Assembly (NCBI GenBank): GCA_043803765.1
Contig: JAZDJQ010000009.1
Span: 1-36,191 of the forward strand
Direction of reading: 5' to 3'
Source: Candidatus Iainarchaeum sp.
GTDB lineage: Archaea; Iainarchaeota; Iainarchaeia; Iainarchaeales; VGJJ01
DNA: 36,191 nt
Shown here: positions 1,540-10,149 of the stretch, one piece after another
Layout of the letters: the number at the start of each line of letters is the position of its first letter
Position numbering within the stretch: the first letter of the stretch is position 1
The notes under the pieces: generated by a model
Seen by the model: the letters and a program-made list of their open reading frames with translations, nothing else
Databases searched by the model: none
What the model was told of the DNA's origin: nothing
Made by a program: the position numbers and the translations under genes

Positions 1540-1992
1540 TTATGCACTCGGACGAGAAATCTCCGTATCCACGGAAGAAGTAACATTATCCCCTTTCAAA
1601 ATGGTTGCCATCCCCTGACGAGGAGTTTCTTCCACTACTTGCACCCCTGAAGGAGATTCCTCATCGGAAGAAGAACCCTTAATGGAACGCAATGTAATCG
1701 TCTTAGTCGTTCCGTTATCCTCCCACAAAGAAGAAAACTTCACAGGAGAATGCATATCCAACCAAATCACACGCTCGGTAGGGTGCTCATACCCCTTCAA
1801 CGAGAATGCACGATTATATTCTAAGAGAGCACGCCCGCCCTGAATAGAATGCAACGCGAACAAAGGAGAACCATTCTTCAATGTCTCAAACGTCTCCCCC
1901 TCATTAATCGTAACCGATTTGGACTCTTTCCTCTTCTGAAAAGGAGGCTTCCAGTCCTGGGACAATGACTCAATCTCGATAACGGCCTGCAT
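1540..1992 (-). CDS. Hypothetical protein (beta-rich N-domain, Ser/acidic disordered tail)
   Basis: 150-aa ORF filling the gap, same strand as pth2; no family recognised. Confidence 0.7.
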   Translation of the reverse strand: MQAVIEIESLSQDWKPPFQKRKESKSVTINEGETFETLKNGSPLFALHSIQGGRALLEYNRAFSLKGYEHPTERVIWLDMHSPVKFSSLWEDNGTTKTITLRSIKGSSSDEESPSGVQVVEETPRQGMATILKGDNVTSSVDTEISRPSA

Positions 1993-2130
1993 AATTCACT
2001 CAACCCCTCTATCATTCCAACCCTGCTTTACGCATCGGAGGATTAACGTTTCTCATGTATTTAATGGTTCGCTACATATGGCGAGAACCCTTCCAAAGGT
2101 GTTTAAATGATAAAAGGAGCCCTCTCCAAC

Positions 2131-3216
2131 ATGGGGTTCTTTCAATTCTTAGAAAATGTTATCACTCACATTCGAGGAGTACAAGAAAAACAGGAACGGA
2201 TAGGAAACACCATCCGAAAACAGGCAAAGGGAGAAATCCCTCATAATGGAAACGAACCACTATTCATCGAAAACACACTAACTCATTCCATTCAAAAAAA
2301 AATGAATGATGGAAAAATTGCGGGCGTGGATTCGGGATTCGCAGGACAATCATTCTATACAATGGATATTATGATGCTGCGGGCAGCAGGAGCATGTTTC
2401 ACATACGAAAACGGGGTCATGACGAAAGCGGAATACGAACCCGAGAGTTTTTCACTGCCTCAACCCATTGTAAACGGACAAGGATTGGAACGAGAGGATT
2501 TTCACAAATTCGTTTCCCTTACACGACTCCAAGCGGAAACAGAAAACGCGATACAAGTAATACAAAAAATGAAACCGGATGTGTGCTTCATGGATGGAAG
2601 CCTCATTTTACACCCGGCTGATAAACCCGGAAGCGATTCCCCACTCAAAAAAGAATATGAAAAAACCATTTCAGGATTTGTAGAATTGTATAAAACAGCA
2701 TTACAAAAAAAATGCATGCTGATAGGAGCAATCGAAGACAGCCGCTCTACTCGATTAAGCGAATGGATACAAAAAAACATGACGCTTCCACAAGAATTAC
2801 AGAACGAAAAAATGCACGACATTCCATTACTGGACAAAGTATTACAGCCGGGAGAAAGAAGCATGATATTTCCAATCGCAGAAAAAAATGAAAAACACCC
2901 CATCTTGAGCGACTTTCCTACCGAATGGAGAGAAAAACTATTTGCATGCTACGTGAAACCATCCCAATGGGATTATCCACTACGCATTGAATTTTTGAGC
3001 AATGGAAACACGATAGAGGACGGGCAACGCGCAGCAGAAATCGCACACGCACAAAGTAATTTGCACAAAGACTATGCGTATCCTTCCATTCTCATTGAAG
3101 CCGACATGCGGGCAGGACTCAAACCGCAAGAAATAGAACTCGTGAGCGACAAAATACTATCCAAAATAGGACGAAACACGCTGCGATTGAAAAGAAGGGA
3201 TAGGAGACCGTTCTGA
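2131..3216 (+). CDS. nurA: DNA double-strand-break repair nuclease NurA
   Basis: IAGVDSG and CFMDGSL acidic motifs, YPLRIEF, YAYPSILIEAD..A. Start set at ATG 2131, downstream of TTTAAA at 2102-2107. Confidence 0.9.
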   Translation: MGFFQFLENVITHIRGVQEKQERIGNTIRKQAKGEIPHNGNEPLFIENTLTHSIQKKMNDGKIAGVDSGFAGQSFYTMDIMMLRAAGACFTYENGVMTKAEYEPESFSLPQPIVNGQGLEREDFHKFVSLTRLQAETENAIQVIQKMKPDVCFMDGSLILHPADKPGSDSPLKKEYEKTISGFVELYKTALQKKCMLIGAIEDSRSTRLSEWIQKNMTLPQELQNEKMHDIPLLDKVLQPGERSMIFPIAEKNEKHPILSDFPTEWREKLFACYVKPSQWDYPLRIEFLSNGNTIEDGQRAAEIAHAQSNLHKDYAYPSILIEADMRAGLKPQEIELVSDKILSKIGRNTLRLKRRDRRPF

Positions 3217-3226
3217 TTAATGAAAA

Positions 3227-4093
3227 TCAACGAGATTTGTGCAGTGGCATTCGGCGCATCCGCGCAATCTTACGCTTTCCCTTCATTACCCGAAGCATTT
3301 TTCCAGTAATATTGTCACGCAAGCCAAACTCCCATAACTTTTCAATATCGGAAAGAAGAATATGACGCCACACCATCGCTTCACGTGATAATACCAACCC
3401 CGGACGGGAAATTGATTTTCCAAGAAGAAAATGAAGAATTTTTTTACGCTTACCCGATAATGGAAAAAGAAATTTCATCGAATCGGTAGTGAAGAGCCAA
3501 GGAACATCATATTGCTTGATACGACCTTCCCACAATAATCTAGAATAAACTTTACTCTTAGGAGTACGTTTAGTAGTAACACTTGCACCAAAAAGAGAAG
3601 CATTCCAATTTCTTTCCCGAATAATTCCATCTAGGAGACTAAAATGTTCAGAAATCGAACCACCCGAAAATGCCTCATCAATCAACATGACACGCACCGG
3701 CTTCTGTCTTTTAACAGATGACATGACCTGACCCAGCATGTCGGTTAATTCTTTTTTCTTCTGGGCGTGTGTCATGGATTCCCTAAATCTTGCAGGAATC
3801 GTATCAAACACCAAACCATTATCCAAATCCGATTGCTCTCCCGTACGCGGATACATGACGGGAGGCATCAGAGAACTTTTTCGTTCAAGACTGGCAATGA
3901 GATGAATCGTTTTCAAAATAGGCTCTGCCCCACGCAAAGGGGCAATAATAACAGTAGGACGACGATGAATAATTTGACGATACACTGCATAACATGCACG
4001 ATAAAAACCAAGCAATTCATAAAGAGAATAAGGGTGCTTCTGCATCTCCCGATACTCTTTCTTGTTGACGTGAGGAGTATTCCTCGCTGACAT
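3227..4093 (-). CDS. Orphan protein with type I phosphoribosyltransferase-like motifs
   Basis: VIIAPLRGA (PPi-loop-like) and RVMLIDEAFSGGSI (PRPP-loop-like); TATATA about 25 nt before ATG 4093; Arg/Lys-rich C-terminus. Confidence 0.6.
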   Translation of the reverse strand: MSARNTPHVNKKEYREMQKHPYSLYELLGFYRACYAVYRQIIHRRPTVIIAPLRGAEPILKTIHLIASLERKSSLMPPVMYPRTGEQSDLDNGLVFDTIPARFRESMTHAQKKKELTDMLGQVMSSVKRQKPVRVMLIDEAFSGGSISEHFSLLDGIIRERNWNASLFGASVTTKRTPKSKVYSRLLWEGRIKQYDVPWLFTTDSMKFLFPLSGKRKKILHFLLGKSISRPGLVLSREAMVWRHILLSDIEKLWEFGLRDNITGKMLRVMKGKRKIARMRRMPLHKSR

Positions 4094-4178
4094 ATGTGAT
4101 CCTTCATAGAAAATCACCTATATAGAAGTGGCGGTATTCCCTCCAAACCCTTAAAACGAGTAAAAGGAGTAGTGATTT

Positions 4179-5735
4179 ATGACCAATGAAAAAGAAGGGG
4201 AAATAGGAACCGTCGTTTCCACCTCCGAGAGCCCGTCTCCATCAAAGGTAGACTTCGTGGTGATGAACGGGAAGGTTCATCGCGGACAGTTTGTCGAAAT
4301 ACCCTACACGGAAGGGTTGCTCGTTGGAATGATTGAGAACGTAATCAAAACAAACAAGTATTTTGAACGCGCGGACGCGGTAAAAGAATTTGAAACACAG
4401 GGGGCCAAACTGTTCGAACAGTTTCCAGTAAACGATTGGGAGTATGTATTGGCACAAGTCAACCCTCTTGGCGTGTTCCATAATGAAAAAATAAAACGCA
4501 CCACATTTCCACCCTCTCCGGGAACAAAAGTATTCAACGCGCAACCGGACAATATCATCCGATTTTTAGGATTGGACGAAGAAAAAGGAATAGAATTAGG
4601 AGAAATGGAATTCCACCCGGTGAAAGTAAGACTGAATTTATCACGATTTTTACAAAAACATGCCGCCATACTCGCAATGAGCGGAGCAGGAAAAAGCCAT
4701 TCCGTTGCATGCTTACTAGAAGAATTATTAGAACGAAAAAAAGAAAACGGACGCATCGCAGTAGTCGTATTTGATGTGCATGGAGAATACACGCATTTTG
4801 CCGAACCACCCACGCAGAAGGAATTTTCGGATTATGCGGGAAGAACACGATTGATTCGAGGAAGAGATTTGAGAATAGGCGTTCCCAAAATACCATTAGG
4901 AATGTTTTCCATTCTATTGCCCAACATGTCACCTGCACAAAAAAGAGAATTAGGAAAAGCCATTCAAACATTACAAGAAAAAATGAGGGACGGACAAGGA
5001 CCGTATGACTTACAGGATATCAAAACGGAATTGCTTGCAGAATTAGACGCAAAACAAGGAAAAGACAGCGTAGTAAATGCGCTGATTGGATGGCTTTATG
5101 AATTAGAAGAACTGCGAATGTTTGGAAAAGCAGATAACCCCGCATTAATAGACTTAATACAACCCGGAATACTCACTATCGTTGATTTGAGCGATATCAT
5201 TCACCAACGAAAAAAACAAGTAATGGTAGGATACTTAGCACAACGCATATTCAATGAAAGAAGAAACAAAGCGATTCCACCCACCACTATCGTATTAGAA
5301 GAAGCCCATCAATTCATCCCCCAACAATCAAGCAAAAGCGAATCATCCTGCAAAGGAGTATTCCGAACAATTGCAAGAGAAGGAAGAAAATTTGGAGTAA
5401 GCCTATGCCTTATTTCACAACGGCCCATTCAACTTGATACCACCACATTATCCCAATGCAACACGCAACTATTATTACGCATCACCAATCCGTATGACAT
5501 TAAACATATTGGAGAGAGTGCGGAAGGCCTTTCGAGTGAAAGCCTTGGAATGCTCACCGCACTAAAAGTAGGAGAGGCTTTGTTGATAGGAGAAGCCGTG
5601 AACGCCCCCACTTTTTTCAAAATACGCCAACGAAAAAGCCAGCCCTCGCAACACGAAGGAAGTTTAGAAAAAGCAGGAATCGCATTCGAAGAAAACGCGG
5701 AAGCAAATAGAAAAGAAACGGAAGACTTATTGTGA
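4179..5735 (+). CDS. herA: HerA bipolar helicase/ATPase
   Basis: N-terminal HAS-barrel-like region, HAAILAMSGAGKS, FDVHGEY, IVLEEAHQF, IAREGRKFG, ISQRP. Confidence 0.93.
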   Translation: MTNEKEGEIGTVVSTSESPSPSKVDFVVMNGKVHRGQFVEIPYTEGLLVGMIENVIKTNKYFERADAVKEFETQGAKLFEQFPVNDWEYVLAQVNPLGVFHNEKIKRTTFPPSPGTKVFNAQPDNIIRFLGLDEEKGIELGEMEFHPVKVRLNLSRFLQKHAAILAMSGAGKSHSVACLLEELLERKKENGRIAVVVFDVHGEYTHFAEPPTQKEFSDYAGRTRLIRGRDLRIGVPKIPLGMFSILLPNMSPAQKRELGKAIQTLQEKMRDGQGPYDLQDIKTELLAELDAKQGKDSVVNALIGWLYELEELRMFGKADNPALIDLIQPGILTIVDLSDIIHQRKKQVMVGYLAQRIFNERRNKAIPPTTIVLEEAHQFIPQQSSKSESSCKGVFRTIAREGRKFGVSLCLISQRPIQLDTTTLSQCNTQLLLRITNPYDIKHIGESAEGLSSESLGMLTALKVGEALLIGEAVNAPTFFKIRQRKSQPSQHEGSLEKAGIAFEENAEANRKETEDLL

Positions 5736-5750
5736 AGCAACGGGAAAAAA

Positions 5751-5805
5751 TGTCCCGCCCCCCGGACTTGCACTACGTGATGCCACTATCAGCGGAACCA
5801 ATGGC
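5751..5805 (-). ncRNA. Candidate small structured RNA / tRNA 3' fragment
   Basis: GC-rich patch with minus-strand TTATATA (5833-5827) upstream and T6 (5750-5745) downstream; ends TGCAAGTCCGGGGGGCGGGACA. Confidence 0.4.
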
Positions 5806-5857
5806 GGTTTGGAGCTGGTTATGGAGTATATAACGAGGGGATTTAGGGGTTATTCGT

Positions 5858-7147
5858 ATGTCCCCCAATACGTACAGCCTAACATCAGTTTCGGCCCGCG
5901 CAGATAGAAAAGGAGTTGATGTTAGCTTTGCAAACGCACACGAAAAAAGAACCGAATTCTACACATTCTTCCCATCCTTCTACCTCCCCCACACTTCCAC
6001 TAATACATTTGAAACCGTATTAGAAAAAGGAGTGGAAGAAAAACACCAAACCATTGCCCACACCCACAGTATTCAAGTGATAAGCGGAACATGGGAATCG
6101 CTCAAAAAAATAGCAACACAAATCCACACCTTTACGGGTTATTATCCCTCCCTCCTCGAACCGGAAAGACAGTTTCTATTAACACAAAAATGGAGATACT
6201 TCCAATCATTTGATGGAAAACGCATTCCTCAAACAGGAGCATTTGAAGAAACACAAATAGAAGGAATGGCAGAAGGAATCCTTACTACGTTACGCGGACT
6301 GCATCAGCACAACTCCCAATTAGAAAAACAATTAGCACGACAACTCGCAATAAGTCATGAATTAGGCATTCCCCCGCACGCCACTTCAACAAATGTAAAT
6401 GAACAAATGGAGTGTCTGCTCGAAAACACTTTTTTTCAGCATCACCTTGCTGCCCCGCTCCAATCAACTTTACCTTTACAACGAGGAAAATGGAACATCG
6501 AAAAAAGAAAAAATGCTGAAGAAAAAGGATGGGAAACACCATTACAACATGAAGGAAAATGCAGTTGTTGTACTCCCCAATCAGGAATAGAAGCTCACCT
6601 AACAAAAGGAAGCCGAATTACAGTAACCATTCTCCAAGACGGAGTGTACATTCACACCCAACATGAAGCATTAAGCCACCACTATCACACTACACACCCT
6701 CACAAAGGAAAAAGAATAACGCGTGCAAATGAATGGGGATTAGATATTTTCCCACTAGGACCTTTTTCACGAGGAGAAAAAATAGAATTGCCATTGCAAG
6801 AAGCACGAGATGCGCATGAAGCAGGATTAGGAAGAATGGAAAAAAACATGGACGCATGCACGTGGAAATGCCTCAAAGAAAAAGGAATATTAGAAAAACT
6901 AAAAGAAGAACTTATGCAGAGAAGAAATTATCACGACATGCAAGCAGGAGGAGTATTACAACCCTATATTTCACAATATCAACTTGCTTACTCTCAACAT
7001 GTATGGAAGTCTCCCGAAGCCCTACTCCACCAAGAAGGAAGAAACACTATTCAGCGATGGATGGAACAACTCCCATTACACCTCCAAAACGGAGAAACCC
7101 GATGGAGGGATAGAGAATGGGCGGAAAGCGTGCAAAATAGCACATAA
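5858..7147 (+). CDS. Inactivated, truncated family-B DNA polymerase derivative with GINS B-domain-like insertion
   Basis: PolB-like landmarks in correct order (FFPSFYL; EPERQFLL; ISHELGIP...EQMECLLE...AP; CSCC; W.C..EKGILEKLKEELMQRR; RWRDREWAESV). No Exo motifs, no DxxSLYPS, no KxxxNSxYG, no YGDTDS. Confidence 0.65.
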   Translation: MSPNTYSLTSVSARADRKGVDVSFANAHEKRTEFYTFFPSFYLPHTSTNTFETVLEKGVEEKHQTIAHTHSIQVISGTWESLKKIATQIHTFTGYYPSLLEPERQFLLTQKWRYFQSFDGKRIPQTGAFEETQIEGMAEGILTTLRGLHQHNSQLEKQLARQLAISHELGIPPHATSTNVNEQMECLLENTFFQHHLAAPLQSTLPLQRGKWNIEKRKNAEEKGWETPLQHEGKCSCCTPQSGIEAHLTKGSRITVTILQDGVYIHTQHEALSHHYHTTHPHKGKRITRANEWGLDIFPLGPFSRGEKIELPLQEARDAHEAGLGRMEKNMDACTWKCLKEKGILEKLKEELMQRRNYHDMQAGGVLQPYISQYQLAYSQHVWKSPEALLHQEGRNTIQRWMEQLPLHLQNGETRWRDREWAESVQNST

Positions 7148-7229
7148 GGGGAAAGAAAAGAGAGGAAAAGAGGACAGCGCCTTTTTATACGTTTCTTCGC
7201 GGATGATGGGTAATAAGGGGTATTAATCC

Positions 7230-7436
7230 ATGCACACGATGACACGATTTGAAAAAACACGCATTATGGGAGCACGATCCCTCCAATTAGCATTCGGGGC
7301 ACCTCCGCTCATTGAGGCAAAAAAGATGCGCACTCCTTACGAATTAGCACGAAAAGAATTCGATGAAAAAGTAATCCCATTATCCATTATACGAAACCTC
7401 CCAAATGGAGAACACATCCGAATTGAGGTGAATTAA
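7230..7436 (+). CDS. rpoK: RNA polymerase subunit Rpo6 (K)
   Basis: TRFEKTRIMGARSLQLAFGAPPLI...A.KE....IPL.I.R.LP. Confidence 0.96.
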   Translation: MHTMTRFEKTRIMGARSLQLAFGAPPLIEAKKMRTPYELARKEFDEKVIPLSIIRNLPNGEHIRIEVN

Positions 7437-7796
7437 ATGGGAAAATCCGTCCCAAAAGGAATCAAAAGCAAGGCCAACGTTATCATGAAAGAGATTCCCG
7501 ATTCATTCTCCGCAAGCTTTGAGGGAAACAAATCATCCATTCGAGGACTAAAACTGCCGTTTTCAAAATGGACAACTAATGTAATGGCGGGATTCGTTAC
7601 AAGACGAAAGAAAAGAACGATTGCTGCTGAGAAAAAACTATTAGAAGAGAAAGAGAAAAAAGAAGCCGTTATGAAAGAAGCACCCGATATGGTTGCCGAG
7701 AAAAAACCGCGCACACGAAAAACAAAAAAGAAAGAAGAAGTTGAAGGAATTCCTATCGAAGAAATAATTGACGAAAAGAAGGACGAAATTAACTAA
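7437..7796 (+). CDS. rps17e: 30S ribosomal protein eS17 with charged C-terminal extension
   Basis: MGK.....IK..A......F...FEGNK.......SK...NVMAGFVTR; about 60-aa K/E-rich tail. Confidence 0.85.
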   Translation: MGKSVPKGIKSKANVIMKEIPDSFSASFEGNKSSIRGLKLPFSKWTTNVMAGFVTRRKKRTIAAEKKLLEEKEKKEAVMKEAPDMVAEKKPRTRKTKKKEEVEGIPIEEIIDEKKDEIN

Positions 7797-10149
7797 TCCT
7801 CGTGCCCAAATCAATCACATGATTTATCGGATTGGTGACACCATCCTCGTTCTTCTCACGCTCTAACACGTATAATGAGCCGGTTGCGGATTTCTCAATA
7901 TCAGGAGAATGAGTAATTACAAAAACCTGGTCCACAAGACCCGGCAAACGATCCCGCAACATGGAAGAAAGAGACTGAATCGATTTTGCATCCAAATTAT
8001 GCGTAGGCTCGTCCAAAATAATCCAACTCAATTGACGAGTTAAAACAAACGCAATCGCCATACGCAGTGCAAGCGCGGCCGCACTGCGTTCCCCTCCCGA
8101 AAGAGAAGATTCAGCCGAAACCCAATTACCACTACGCTCACGCACCGTTAAAACGTAATCATTCTCCTGAATCAACACTTTAGCAAGAGTGAAATCACGA
8201 TACGGATAAAGAGAAGGCCACAACTCCACTAATGCGGCATTAATCGCCTCAACAACCCCTTCACGAAGCTGCTGCTGCGTTTCAACCAAAGCACGAGAAA
8301 AAACACCCAACCCTTCCTCTACATCTGCACGAAGAAGAAGAGCCGATTCCAATTCTTTCCGCTTAGCAAGCATCGAATCAATATTCTTCAGCCTGGAAGA
8401 AAGCTCATTCTCCATCTGAACAAGCATCGAATGCTCATTCTGCAATGATTTCCACTCAAACTCAAAACGAGACCATTCCGCATGACATCCATCCCATTCT
8501 TCTTTCACATGAGAAAAAGAATCCATTAATTTTTCTCTAGATGCAATAGCATCAGTAACCCTATTCCATTCCTTTTTCATACGAAACATTTCCTCTGCAC
8601 GAGTAAAGAAATGCAAACGCGTGCGAAGAGCATCCAATTCTTCAACGGAAACAAGAGAAAGAGAAAGAATGTTTTTCTCCGCCGATTGGGATTCCGCACG
8701 GGCACGAGAAACATCATCCAAAATAGTTTGACCATCTTGCAAACGAAGAAGAACCGATTCCTGCTCTGAAATAGCCGAATCAATACCACGCAACACGGTG
8801 AGAACACCTGATTCCTCACCCACCAAGGAACGGCGGCGCGCTTCCGCAGCCTCTTCCTGCAGCAAAAAAAAATTCTTCTTCTCCACGACTGATTCAAGAA
8901 TAAGGGCAACATGCTGAGGCTGGATTTCCTGCCGGCACGTTGGACAATGAGCATGAAGAGAACGAACGTTCGACTCTTCCTTATCCAATTCATTCAATTG
9001 TGTTTGAGAAAGATGAAGAATGGATACGCATTCGGCCAACTCTTTCTGTAAAAAAAGCTGTTTTTCAACCAATTGTTTTTTTTGATTCTTTAATTGATGA
9101 AGCATGTTTTCCACTTTATCAATCGTCTCCCCCTTCGTACGAGAAGACCATTCCGCATGACGCTTCTCAGCCAATTCCAACCGCTGAAGGGCTTTCTGAT
9201 GCTGAATTTCAAGAAGACGATGCTGTTCCTGCTGACGAATAAGAAAAGCCAAACGGTCAATTGTAGAGGACTTCTCAACAAGGAGCTTTTCCAAAGAATG
9301 AGCATCCCATGAAGGATTTGATTGAGAAAAAAAATCCAATTGCGATTTAATTGATTGTGATTTTCCACGCAAAGAATGAAGTTCATGCTCAATCGATTCG
9401 CGTTCCTGCACACGACGTTTTAATTCTATTAAACGTGATTCTAATACTGCTTTTTCTTCCTTTTTTTTAGAAAGAATTAATTCAAGCGATTGACGTTTTT
9501 GTTTTTGAGATTCAATCTTGAAACGCAATGCGTTCACATCCTCATTCCCAAGCAATGCATCCAAATGAGAAAGAGATTGACGCAATCCTTCCTGGGATTT
9601 CTTGAAATGATTCATTAACGTATTCGCATTAGAACGCACCACCTCATATTTCTGCAAATCAAGCAACTCATCAAACTTCTTCTTTCTTTCTCCGGGATTG
9701 AGCTTTAGAAAATAATCCACCTGATTCTGTTCCGAATATACGGCACGAGAAAACAACTCATAGGAGACTTGCAATTCTTGTTCAATGCGCTCGGTTACTT
9801 GATTAGGCTTAGGACCGGCTAAGAGAGTATCCCCTCTATACAAACGGCCTTCATTCGCCCCGGTACGTTTAAGGATACGCTCAACACGGTATTTTTTATC
9901 ACCTATCCCAAAAGAAACACTAATTTTAGCCGTATCAGAAGGAAAAGGCTTGCGCATAAACAAATCATTCGTTGAAACGCGCCTATTCTGAAGAGCAGGA
10001 AACGTACCAAAGAGACCGTAACAAAGCGCATCCATCACACTCGACTTTCCAGAACCAATAACCCCCACTAGAACATTTGTTCCCTTCCTGAAATGCAGGG
10101 TCGTTTGACGATGAGTTTTCCAATTCTCTAATGAAATAGAATCAATCAT
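7789..10149 (-). CDS. rad50: Rad50 SMC-family ATPase
   Basis: LENWKTH, Walker A GVIGSGKSS, Q-loop YSEQ, central CPTC zinc hook, LSGGE signature, ILDEPT..LD, VITH. Confidence 0.93.
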   Translation of the reverse strand: MIDSISLENWKTHRQTTLHFRKGTNVLVGVIGSGKSSVMDALCYGLFGTFPALQNRRVSTNDLFMRKPFPSDTAKISVSFGIGDKKYRVERILKRTGANEGRLYRGDTLLAGPKPNQVTERIEQELQVSYELFSRAVYSEQNQVDYFLKLNPGERKKKFDELLDLQKYEVVRSNANTLMNHFKKSQEGLRQSLSHLDALLGNEDVNALRFKIESQKQKRQSLELILSKKKEEKAVLESRLIELKRRVQERESIEHELHSLRGKSQSIKSQLDFFSQSNPSWDAHSLEKLLVEKSSTIDRLAFLIRQQEQHRLLEIQHQKALQRLELAEKRHAEWSSRTKGETIDKVENMLHQLKNQKKQLVEKQLFLQKELAECVSILHLSQTQLNELDKEESNVRSLHAHCPTCRQEIQPQHVALILESVVEKKNFFLLQEEAAEARRRSLVGEESGVLTVLRGIDSAISEQESVLLRLQDGQTILDDVSRARAESQSAEKNILSLSLVSVEELDALRTRLHFFTRAEEMFRMKKEWNRVTDAIASREKLMDSFSHVKEEWDGCHAEWSRFEFEWKSLQNEHSMLVQMENELSSRLKNIDSMLAKRKELESALLLRADVEEGLGVFSRALVETQQQLREGVVEAINAALVELWPSLYPYRDFTLAKVLIQENDYVLTVRERSGNWVSAESSLSGGERSAAALALRMAIAFVLTRQLSWIILDEPTHNLDAKSIQSLSSMLRDRLPGLVDQVFVITHSPDIEKSATGSLYVLEREKNEDGVTNPINHVIDLGTRIS

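Follow-up and report, generated by a model that had tools for sequence, protein, structure and literature searches.

What is encoded by an intact open reading frame (ORF) of 429 amino acids (aa) that stands directly downstream of herA in Candidatus Iainarchaeum sp., and what could its product do? The stretch of DNA analyzed here, which we call the window, comprises the 36,191 nucleotides (nt) of contig JAZDJQ010000009.1 (assembly GCA_043803765.1). The ORF, here named X (protein P0001), had been described in a first-pass annotation as an inactive, miniaturized family-B DNA polymerase (PolB), and the open frame proposed there was reproduced. Our results point with high confidence to a PolB derivative, very probably without catalytic activity, that is kept by purifying selection across its order. 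They also revealed a cysteine-flanked insert in the palm that is probably homologous to the B-domain of GINS proteins.

As a single sequence, X matched no Pfam family at E <= 0.01, no NCBIfam family, and no PDB chain. Its AlphaFold2 model, built on a 21-sequence alignment, had a predicted local distance difference test (pLDDT) of 89.6 and a predicted template modelling score (pTM) of 0.85. When the full-length model was compared with PDB by Foldseek, 50 of the 50 matches listed were family-B polymerases (best E 1.6e-5, probability 1.0, query-normalized TM-score (TMq) 0.37-0.48), including those of Pyrococcus abyssi, KOD, Tgo, and 9°N, and Pol epsilon. These alignments ran over about 600 columns, which implies a large gap at the position of the exonuclease domain. 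The search of ESM Atlas gave no usable match, and the Atlas's own model of X was poor.

Two profiles were used for the sequence comparisons: A1, made from 21 X sequences, and A2, made from 105 sequences of the wider family. Neither the single sequence nor the 21-sequence profile found anything relevant in PDB; only the 105-sequence profile reached PolB. Its best match was 5mdn_A, a PolB (E 0.0032), followed by Pol alpha. The 5mdn_A match consisted of two collinear stretches, one with the post-exonuclease helix and motif A, and the other with the fingers, the RWY..AESV segment, and motif C. In the genome that carries X, the second match of A2 was the canonical PolB ORF (E 2e-6). A third match in this genome was weak and is probably noise (G000:C12:172627-172839, minus strand, E 0.006, profile positions 409-478, in a 328-aa frame). 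The Pfam models DNA_pol_B and DNA_pol_B_exo1 gave no match at E <= 1 to three 500-aa relatives or to a 905-aa form that is described below.

The alignment by HHalign of the family (105 sequences) with 31 canonical PolBs of the same order had a probability of 98.8% and an E of 1.1e-16 over 411 columns, with family columns 13-526 placed on PolB columns 5-627 of 824. All of the PolB landmarks listed in the first-pass annotation were collinear in this unsupervised profile-profile alignment. FFPSFYL was aligned with F.PYFYV of PolB, EPERQFLL with IPFTKRYLID, and AISHELGIP...EQMECLLEN with ELsrLv..LfDv...VE.LL. CSCC and W.C were paired with C..C and WFC, KGILEKLKEEL with KGLFTIVLERIL, and RWRDREWAESV with RWYSRESA.A. 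The similarity therefore covers the N-terminal domain, the palm, and the fingers in the order in which they occur in PolB, which places X in the family-B superfamily by homology. With the structure search, the PDB profile match, and HHalign in agreement, it is highly likely that X is a PolB derivative, as the annotation had held.

The same annotation had considered X an apparent orphan, a view that is refuted by 24 orthologues and by the representatives of 136 family clusters. The orthologues, of about 430 aa and 40-54% identity to X, came from a word-indexed search, which also gave a 515-aa relative with 27% identity; two of the 24 are named Candidatus Diapherotrites or Candidatus Iainarchaeum archaeon at their source. 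The clusters, mostly of 480-530 aa, were found at E <= 0.001 when 1.84 billion representatives were searched exhaustively with phmmer. A search with A2 for longer forms, of 957-2730 aa, found none. Two orthologues, P0003 (459 aa) and P0005 (595 aa), have long unconserved N-terminal extensions before an M(S/T)PNT start, which are probably due to mis-called start codons.

The A1 profile matched 40 of the 61 genomes of the class, 39 of 42 in the order of X and 1 of 19 elsewhere, and 34 of the 39 genomes that are at least 90% complete. With A2, 198 of 215 genomes of a sample of the phylum were matched. The matches were weak only (E 1e-4 to 1e-9) in 22 of the 198 genomes, and these would be ordinary PolB by analogy with the genome of X, in which the second match falls inside the canonical PolB ORF. 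A strong A2 match (E <= 1e-27) was present in about 175 of the 196 genomes of the order. The scan of all GTDB species genomes with A1 and two peptide patterns gave 18 loci, whose titles are Iainarchaeum, Diapherotrites, or uncultured archaeon, and in one case "Thaumarchaeota." No match was obtained outside records labelled Iainarchaeota or Diapherotrites, which is weak evidence, as the two peptide patterns limited the reach of the scan. One record titled "Thaumarchaeota archaeon" (L146) is a metagenome-assembled genome with an X orthologue of 50% identity. This bin is probably mislabelled or chimeric, since every other titled match is Iainarchaeum or Diapherotrites.

Could X be a pseudogene in decay, or an ORF that arose by chance and resembles PolB by coincidence? 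Such an origin would fit the lack of any single-sequence match in Pfam, NCBIfam, or PDB and the poor result in ESM Atlas. It is contradicted by the intact orthologous ORFs in about 175 of 196 order genomes, the high-confidence AlphaFold2 model, and an HHalign E of 1e-16 to PolB. The ratio of nonsynonymous to synonymous substitution rates (dN/dS) was 0.198 in each of two pairs, an estimate that is thin, because only these two non-identical pairs reached at least 60% identity, and that was made at dS values (1.16 and 1.45) above 1 and near saturation. A ratio of about 0.2 together with frames that are open across the order excludes neutral decay. X is thus kept by purifying selection across its order and is not decaying, and an origin as a pseudogene or by chance is scarcely credible. 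The annotation had named simple decay as the outcome that would speak against its reading, and both the distribution and the dN/dS contradict it.

We next consider which parts of a polymerase are left. By the usual nomenclature of polymerases, the conserved segments are Exo I-III and motifs A-C; in an active family-B polymerase, motif A is DxxSLYPS, motif B is KxxxNSxYG, and motif C is YGDTDS. In X, about 15 residues stand in for about 180 PolB columns that contain Exo I-III. These columns have no counterpart, which bears out the proposed deletion of the exonuclease domain. The column of the motif A aspartate is occupied by K211 in X, by Asp in 68 of the 105 family members, and by Asn in 14. 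In the AlphaFold2 model, the fingers of X are formed by two helices, 344-382 and 386-411, from which the Lys, Asn, and Tyr of motif B are gone, so that motifs A and B are erased in X as the annotation had it. The chain stops four residues past RWRDREWAESV, before motif C.

The stop before YGDTDS and the thumb had also been noted in the first reading. This is correct for X and not for most of the relatives of about 500 aa, which run through a degenerate strand equivalent to YGDTDS, with no conserved acidic residue there. According to frame lengths and profile coverage, truncation before motif C occurs in the genus of X and in a small number of further genera. The 500-aa family itself runs no further than about PolB column 627 of 824, and no member has a thumb as a consequence.

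The only relative outside the order, in genome G003, has 828 aa, or 905 aa if the ORF is read from an upstream TTG. The insert is present here too, as CNCC...PTGPF...WFC, the exonuclease region is degenerate, and HIEGSS is found where YGDTDS would be expected. This protein alone was aligned to the PolB profile by HHalign with a probability of 95.4% (E 1.6e-8), and the C-terminal segment of the 905-aa ORF, used as a query, retrieved only itself. G003 is the sole genome of its order in the analysis, and its apparent position as an intermediate rests on this single case.

X is very probably non-catalytic. The alternative is that X or its 500-aa relatives keep nucleotidyl transfer or some other catalysis through non-canonical residues, as was claimed for PolB2/Dpo2. 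The Asp or Asn at the motif A column in most of the family would agree with it, as would the invariant polar residues R286, E292, and D261 of the close subfamily; these residues are situated in the insert, however, outside the catalytic palm. According to the accessible part of PMC7544198, PolBs without the first Asp of motif C can be active, and reports of PolB2 activity are cited there. The family, nevertheless, lacks the thumb, the exonuclease domain, the Lys, Asn, and Tyr of motif B, and a conserved acidic residue in motif C; X itself has no motif C strand and has Lys in place of the motif A Asp. We consider residual catalysis very improbable.

A cysteine cluster in the palm was a further element of the first-pass annotation. 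The cysteines do pair with C..C and WFC of PolB, but they do not enclose a plain loop. The distance from CSCC to W.C is about 98 residues in X versus about 14 in PolB, which reveals an inserted domain that had been overlooked, located past motif A and bordering directly on the fingers. The annotation had suggested examining the conservation of these cysteines, and all four proved to be near-invariant. R286, P299, G301, and P302 are invariant within the insert.

A model of the insert alone (36 sequences) had a pLDDT of 87.2. In the Foldseek search of PDB with this model, the top seven matches were GINS B-domains (E 0.087-0.78). The best one was 5ghr_D, from the complex of Gins51C with GAN (E 0.087, probability 0.99, target-normalized TM-score (TMt) 0.68), and the others included Gins51 of T. 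kodakarensis, the GINS tetramer of S. solfataricus, and a chain of the yeast CMGE structure 7qhs. Among the 36 inserts compared with Pfam, the most frequently matched family was PSF2_N (PF25005; 5 of 36, best E 0.018), and Gins51_C (PF22090) was matched by two (best E 0.006). One full-length relative matched PSF2_N with an E of 0.0095. The insert of X itself matched no GINS family in Pfam, and none of the inserts reached a gathering score.

HHalign of the insert with 30 Gins51 proteins of the same order gave a P of 8.4e-5 over the motif GPF.(R/K)G....LP...A, and a P of 8.7e-6 over 59 columns with the Gins51 B-domain alone. The controls gave 0.038 (reversed template), 0.021 (best of 30 column-shuffled alignments), and 0.093 (an unrelated GAN alignment). 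The insert appears to share a small beta-rich fold and this motif with the GINS B-domain (PF22090, PF25005). It differs in its position inside a polymerase palm, in its interruption by a two-helix hairpin, and in the four flanking cysteines. We regard homology with the GINS B-domain as probable. The four cysteines would staple the insert and are probably metal-bound.

The position of the insert also brings to mind the P-domain of Pol epsilon with its CysX [4Fe-4S] cluster, of which the insert with its four cysteines could be the archaeal counterpart. The insertion point, from motif A to the fingers, and the size, about 85-100 residues, are similar, and three cysteines ahead of the insert and one behind it match the arrangement C665/C668/C677 plus C763 of CysX in the accessible part of PMC6582351. 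Moreover, Pol epsilon chains had the highest TMq (0.46 and 0.48) among the full-length Foldseek matches listed. The available text of PMC7544198 considers the P-domain and CysX unique to Pol epsilon orthologues and knows of no metal-binding domain in archaeal PolBs. The insert model, in turn, gave no Pol epsilon chain among the 50 Foldseek matches listed, where GINS B-domains came first, and the CxCC spacing is unlike that of CysX. Since the local PolB has Cys at C..C and WFC around a short loop, the cysteines of X could derive from an ordinary archaeal PolB. For these reasons, homology of the insert with the P-domain was set aside as clearly improbable.

The genes around X were compared in 20 loci of the order, a non-random sample taken from the top of the list of the 21-sequence profile and covering many genera. 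The order nurA-herA-X-rpo6-rps17e/rad50 was widely conserved: rpo6-rps17e followed X directly in 20 of 20 loci, herA was upstream on the same strand in 18, and rad50 and nurA were each within 8 kb in 19. The proximity to herA, nurA, and rad50 pointed out in the first reading is thus a feature of the relatives too. X is not next to herA in several loci, where 1.5-4 kb of other DNA intervenes. The genome of the other order, G003, has the order herA-X-rps17e-rad50. In the window, EF-1beta and a small Zn-ribbon gene are also among the neighbours of X.

It was observed that the herA genes next to X in G017, G043, G055, and G060 are in open frames of about 1150-1190 aa, and that the canonical PolB frames of G050, G056, and G123 have 1253-1311 aa, with a Pfam match in two parts. 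Frames of this length suggest that some replication and repair genes of this order contain inteins. A look-up of sequencing runs for window positions 4179-7796, as a sign of expression, listed none and no holder of RNA data. With respect to the window itself, the 3′ ends of rps17e (plus strand) and rad50 (minus strand) are convergent and overlap by 8 nt (7789-7796). An ORF of 296 aa between nurA and herA (3227-4117, minus strand) had no Pfam or NCBIfam match and a tblastn match in only 1 of 21 related loci, of the same genus. Another ORF, of 150 aa (1540-1992, minus strand) and divergent from nurA, likewise had no Pfam or NCBIfam match; it was found by tblastn near nurA in 11 of the 21 related loci.

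The gene order is the basis of a different explanation, in which X is an accessory of end resection by HerA-NurA and Mre11-Rad50, for example for loading onto or capping DNA ends, and the insert has a structural role only. The adjacency of herA on the same strand, the nearby rad50, and the fact that the sole relative from another order also lies between these two genes would all be accounted for. Yet rpo6, rps17e, EF-1beta, and the Zn-ribbon gene belong to the same conserved block, so the linkage may be historical, and herA is not always immediately adjacent, as the intervening DNA in several loci indicates. HerA occurs throughout the class (61 of 61 genomes), whereas X is almost confined to one order. 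X has a promoter-like element of its own, a TATATAA sequence before its ATG that the annotation had called a TATA box and that we also recognized, and the Mre11-like gene lies elsewhere, on contig 4. We consider the resection accessory rather doubtful.

The genome of X (1.02 Mb, 93% complete) encodes one canonical PolB of 812 aa (L001:1429-3867), PolD DP2, and a Gins51 with a B-domain of its own. Canonical PolB and Gins51 were each found in 41 of 41 sampled genomes of the order. With these proteins all present, X is an extra gene and not a replacement.

The CID-type GAN of this genome is interrupted by a LAGLIDADG intein. This GAN/Cdc45-like RecJ (G000:C5, L129:1-1974:-) is the N-terminal 658 aa of a 1000-aa frame, and the intein follows ...STVLNA, at the conserved NACGR site; genomes G029, G036, and G044, of the same genus, have intein-free GANs of about 487 aa. 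The sole Mre11-like gene encodes 434 aa (G000:C4 L055:853-2157:-) and is linked to neither rad50, herA, nor nurA. Its best NCBIfam matches are Mre11 models, all far under their cut-offs. The presence of this gene on contig 4 ruled out X as a replacement of Mre11.

We propose that X is a vertically inherited archaeal PolB paralogue that has shed most of its size and no longer works as an enzyme. What is left of the polymerase is the N-terminal domain, the fingers, and a portion of the palm; the 3′-5′ exonuclease domain, the thumb, and the three polymerase motifs are gone. The polymerase-derived body may supply a platform for binding DNA or protein, with the Cys-stapled B-like module as a docking hook, as Gins51C is for GAN and PolD DP1. 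In the accessible parts of the sources, Gins51C of Thermococcus acts as a mobile hook whose target is the DHH domain of GAN (PMC5100581), and Gins51C also binds DP1N of PolD (PMC9023282). X could then be a functional analogue of the half of Pol epsilon in which PolB is inactive.

We lean on balance, and slightly, toward a non-catalytic adaptor composed of such a platform and such a hook. That the B-like module acts as a protein hook is a tentative suggestion, based on the analogy with Gins51C. A partner in the replisome (GAN, PolD, GINS, or MCM) is possible though somewhat doubtful, and one in HerA-NurA/Rad50 repair is a little less likely again. The most specific version, in which a genuine GINS B-domain was captured in the palm of a dead PolB, is held by a four-Cys metal site at the place of the Fe-S-stapled P-domain of Pol epsilon, and tethers X to GAN/Cdc45, PolD, or the Cdc45-MCM-GINS complex (CMG), is unlikely. 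Metal binding, DNA binding, the role as a hook, and the pathway of X are all inferred.

Several observations weigh against the adaptor and its partners. The similarity between the insert and GINS is below every curated threshold and concerns a small fold; it could be convergence. CID-type GAN was detected in only 24 of 41 genomes of the order while X is near-universal there, and it therefore cannot be an obligate partner of X. The HerA of all 61 class genomes includes that of 14 genomes of family f16 without X, and with HerA universal, patterns of presence and absence give no link between X and HerA. As rpo6, rps17e, and EF-1beta are unrelated housekeeping genes and equally syntenic, the adjacency of X to herA may mirror inherited gene order and not function. 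Finally, the motif A Asp is kept in 65% of the family, which would allow some residual activity of the 500-aa forms.

Table 1. Features of ORF X and its neighbours in the window (positions in nt; residues refer to the X protein)
Feature	Position	Strand	Description
nurA	2107..3216	+	conserved neighbour
herA	4179..5735	+	directly upstream of X, same strand
TATATAA	5827..5833	+	TATA-box-like; 25-31 nt 5′ of the X ATG; read by eye
ORF X, 429 aa (P0001)	5858..7147	+	very probably a domain-reduced, dead PolB paralogue; intact open frame
PolB N-terminal domain, first part, residues 1-128	5858..6241	+	FFPSFYL, invariant EPERQFLL..W.YF..FD
Exonuclease-deletion scar, about residues 112-130	6191..6247	+	residue pairing inside the gap of low confidence
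Post-exonuclease N-terminal-domain helices, residues 141-200	6278..6457	+	ISHELGIP...LLENTFF
Motif A palm-strand remnant, residues 205-232	6470..6553	+	Asp column = K211
C235-x-C237-C238	6560..6571	+	N-terminal base of insert; three of the four near-invariant Cys, 99% conserved
Palm insert, about 97 residues, 239-335	6572..6862	+	GINS-B-domain-like, with two-helix insertion
W336-x-C338	6863..6871	+	C-terminal base of insert; fourth Cys; pairs with PolB WFC
Fingers-like helical hairpin, residues 344-411	6887..7090	+	motif B Lys/Asn/Tyr absent
RWRDREWAESV, residues 415-425	7100..7132	+	equivalent to PolB RWY..E.A.AV
rpo6	7230..7436	+	directly downstream of X, same strand
rps17e	7437..7796	+	after rpo6, same strand as X
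rad50	7789..10149	-	convergent to X

How does X compare with what is known? According to PMC7544198 and PMC4104785, Rogozin in 2008 and Tahirov in 2009 are said to have described the inactivated PolB2 of archaea and, in Pol epsilon, a C-terminal PolB module that is inactive. Canonical archaeal PolB (Pab, KOD, Tgo, and the 812-aa protein of this genome) shares with X a collinear N-terminal domain, post-exonuclease helices, and motif A palm, as well as the Cys positions, the fingers hairpin, and the RWY..E.A.AV segment. X differs in having no exonuclease domain or thumb, in the loss of the motifs, in an insert of about 100 residues, and in its length of 429 versus about 800 aa. In the accessible part of PMC7544198, the Pol epsilon module serves as a connection to CMG that takes no part in catalysis. 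As far as the available descriptions go, PolB2 and this module are, like X, paralogues of PolB whose catalytic motifs are disrupted and that selection has retained. They are set apart from it by their full-length exonuclease and polymerase regions, in contrast to the absence of exonuclease domain and thumb and the GINS-B-like insert in X (PMC7544198).

The search of full-text literature did not find a description of the X family, although the supplementary tables of PolB groups of PMC7544198 could contain members. There is none in the accessible parts of PMC7544198, PMC4104785, PMC12680538, and PMC9258230. The family is invisible to Pfam and NCBIfam, and surveys of PolB based on those models would probably miss X. 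Inactivated PolBs are known; what is new is a form that lacks both exonuclease domain and thumb and has a GINS-B-like, Cys-stapled insert in its palm.

Inactivated polymerase scaffolds are central to the eukaryotic replisome, as in the C-terminal half of Pol epsilon, and their archaeal antecedents are few. Here, selection has preserved, in DPANN archaea whose genomes measure about 1 Mb, a remnant of PolB made of an N-terminal domain, palm, fingers, and a module that resembles the GINS hook. If the tether to GAN/Cdc45, PolD, or CMG were true, X would represent a prokaryotic counterpart, of independent origin, to the non-catalytic link between Pol epsilon and CMG, and the 828-aa form of G003, with its degenerate exonuclease region, would mark the route of reduction. 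X is also a compact and tractable protein for asking what the non-catalytic parts of PolB do alone. It raises the question of whether the Cys-flanked site before the fingers is a recurrent place for metal-stapled domains, and it bears on how reduced archaea wire replication to break repair.

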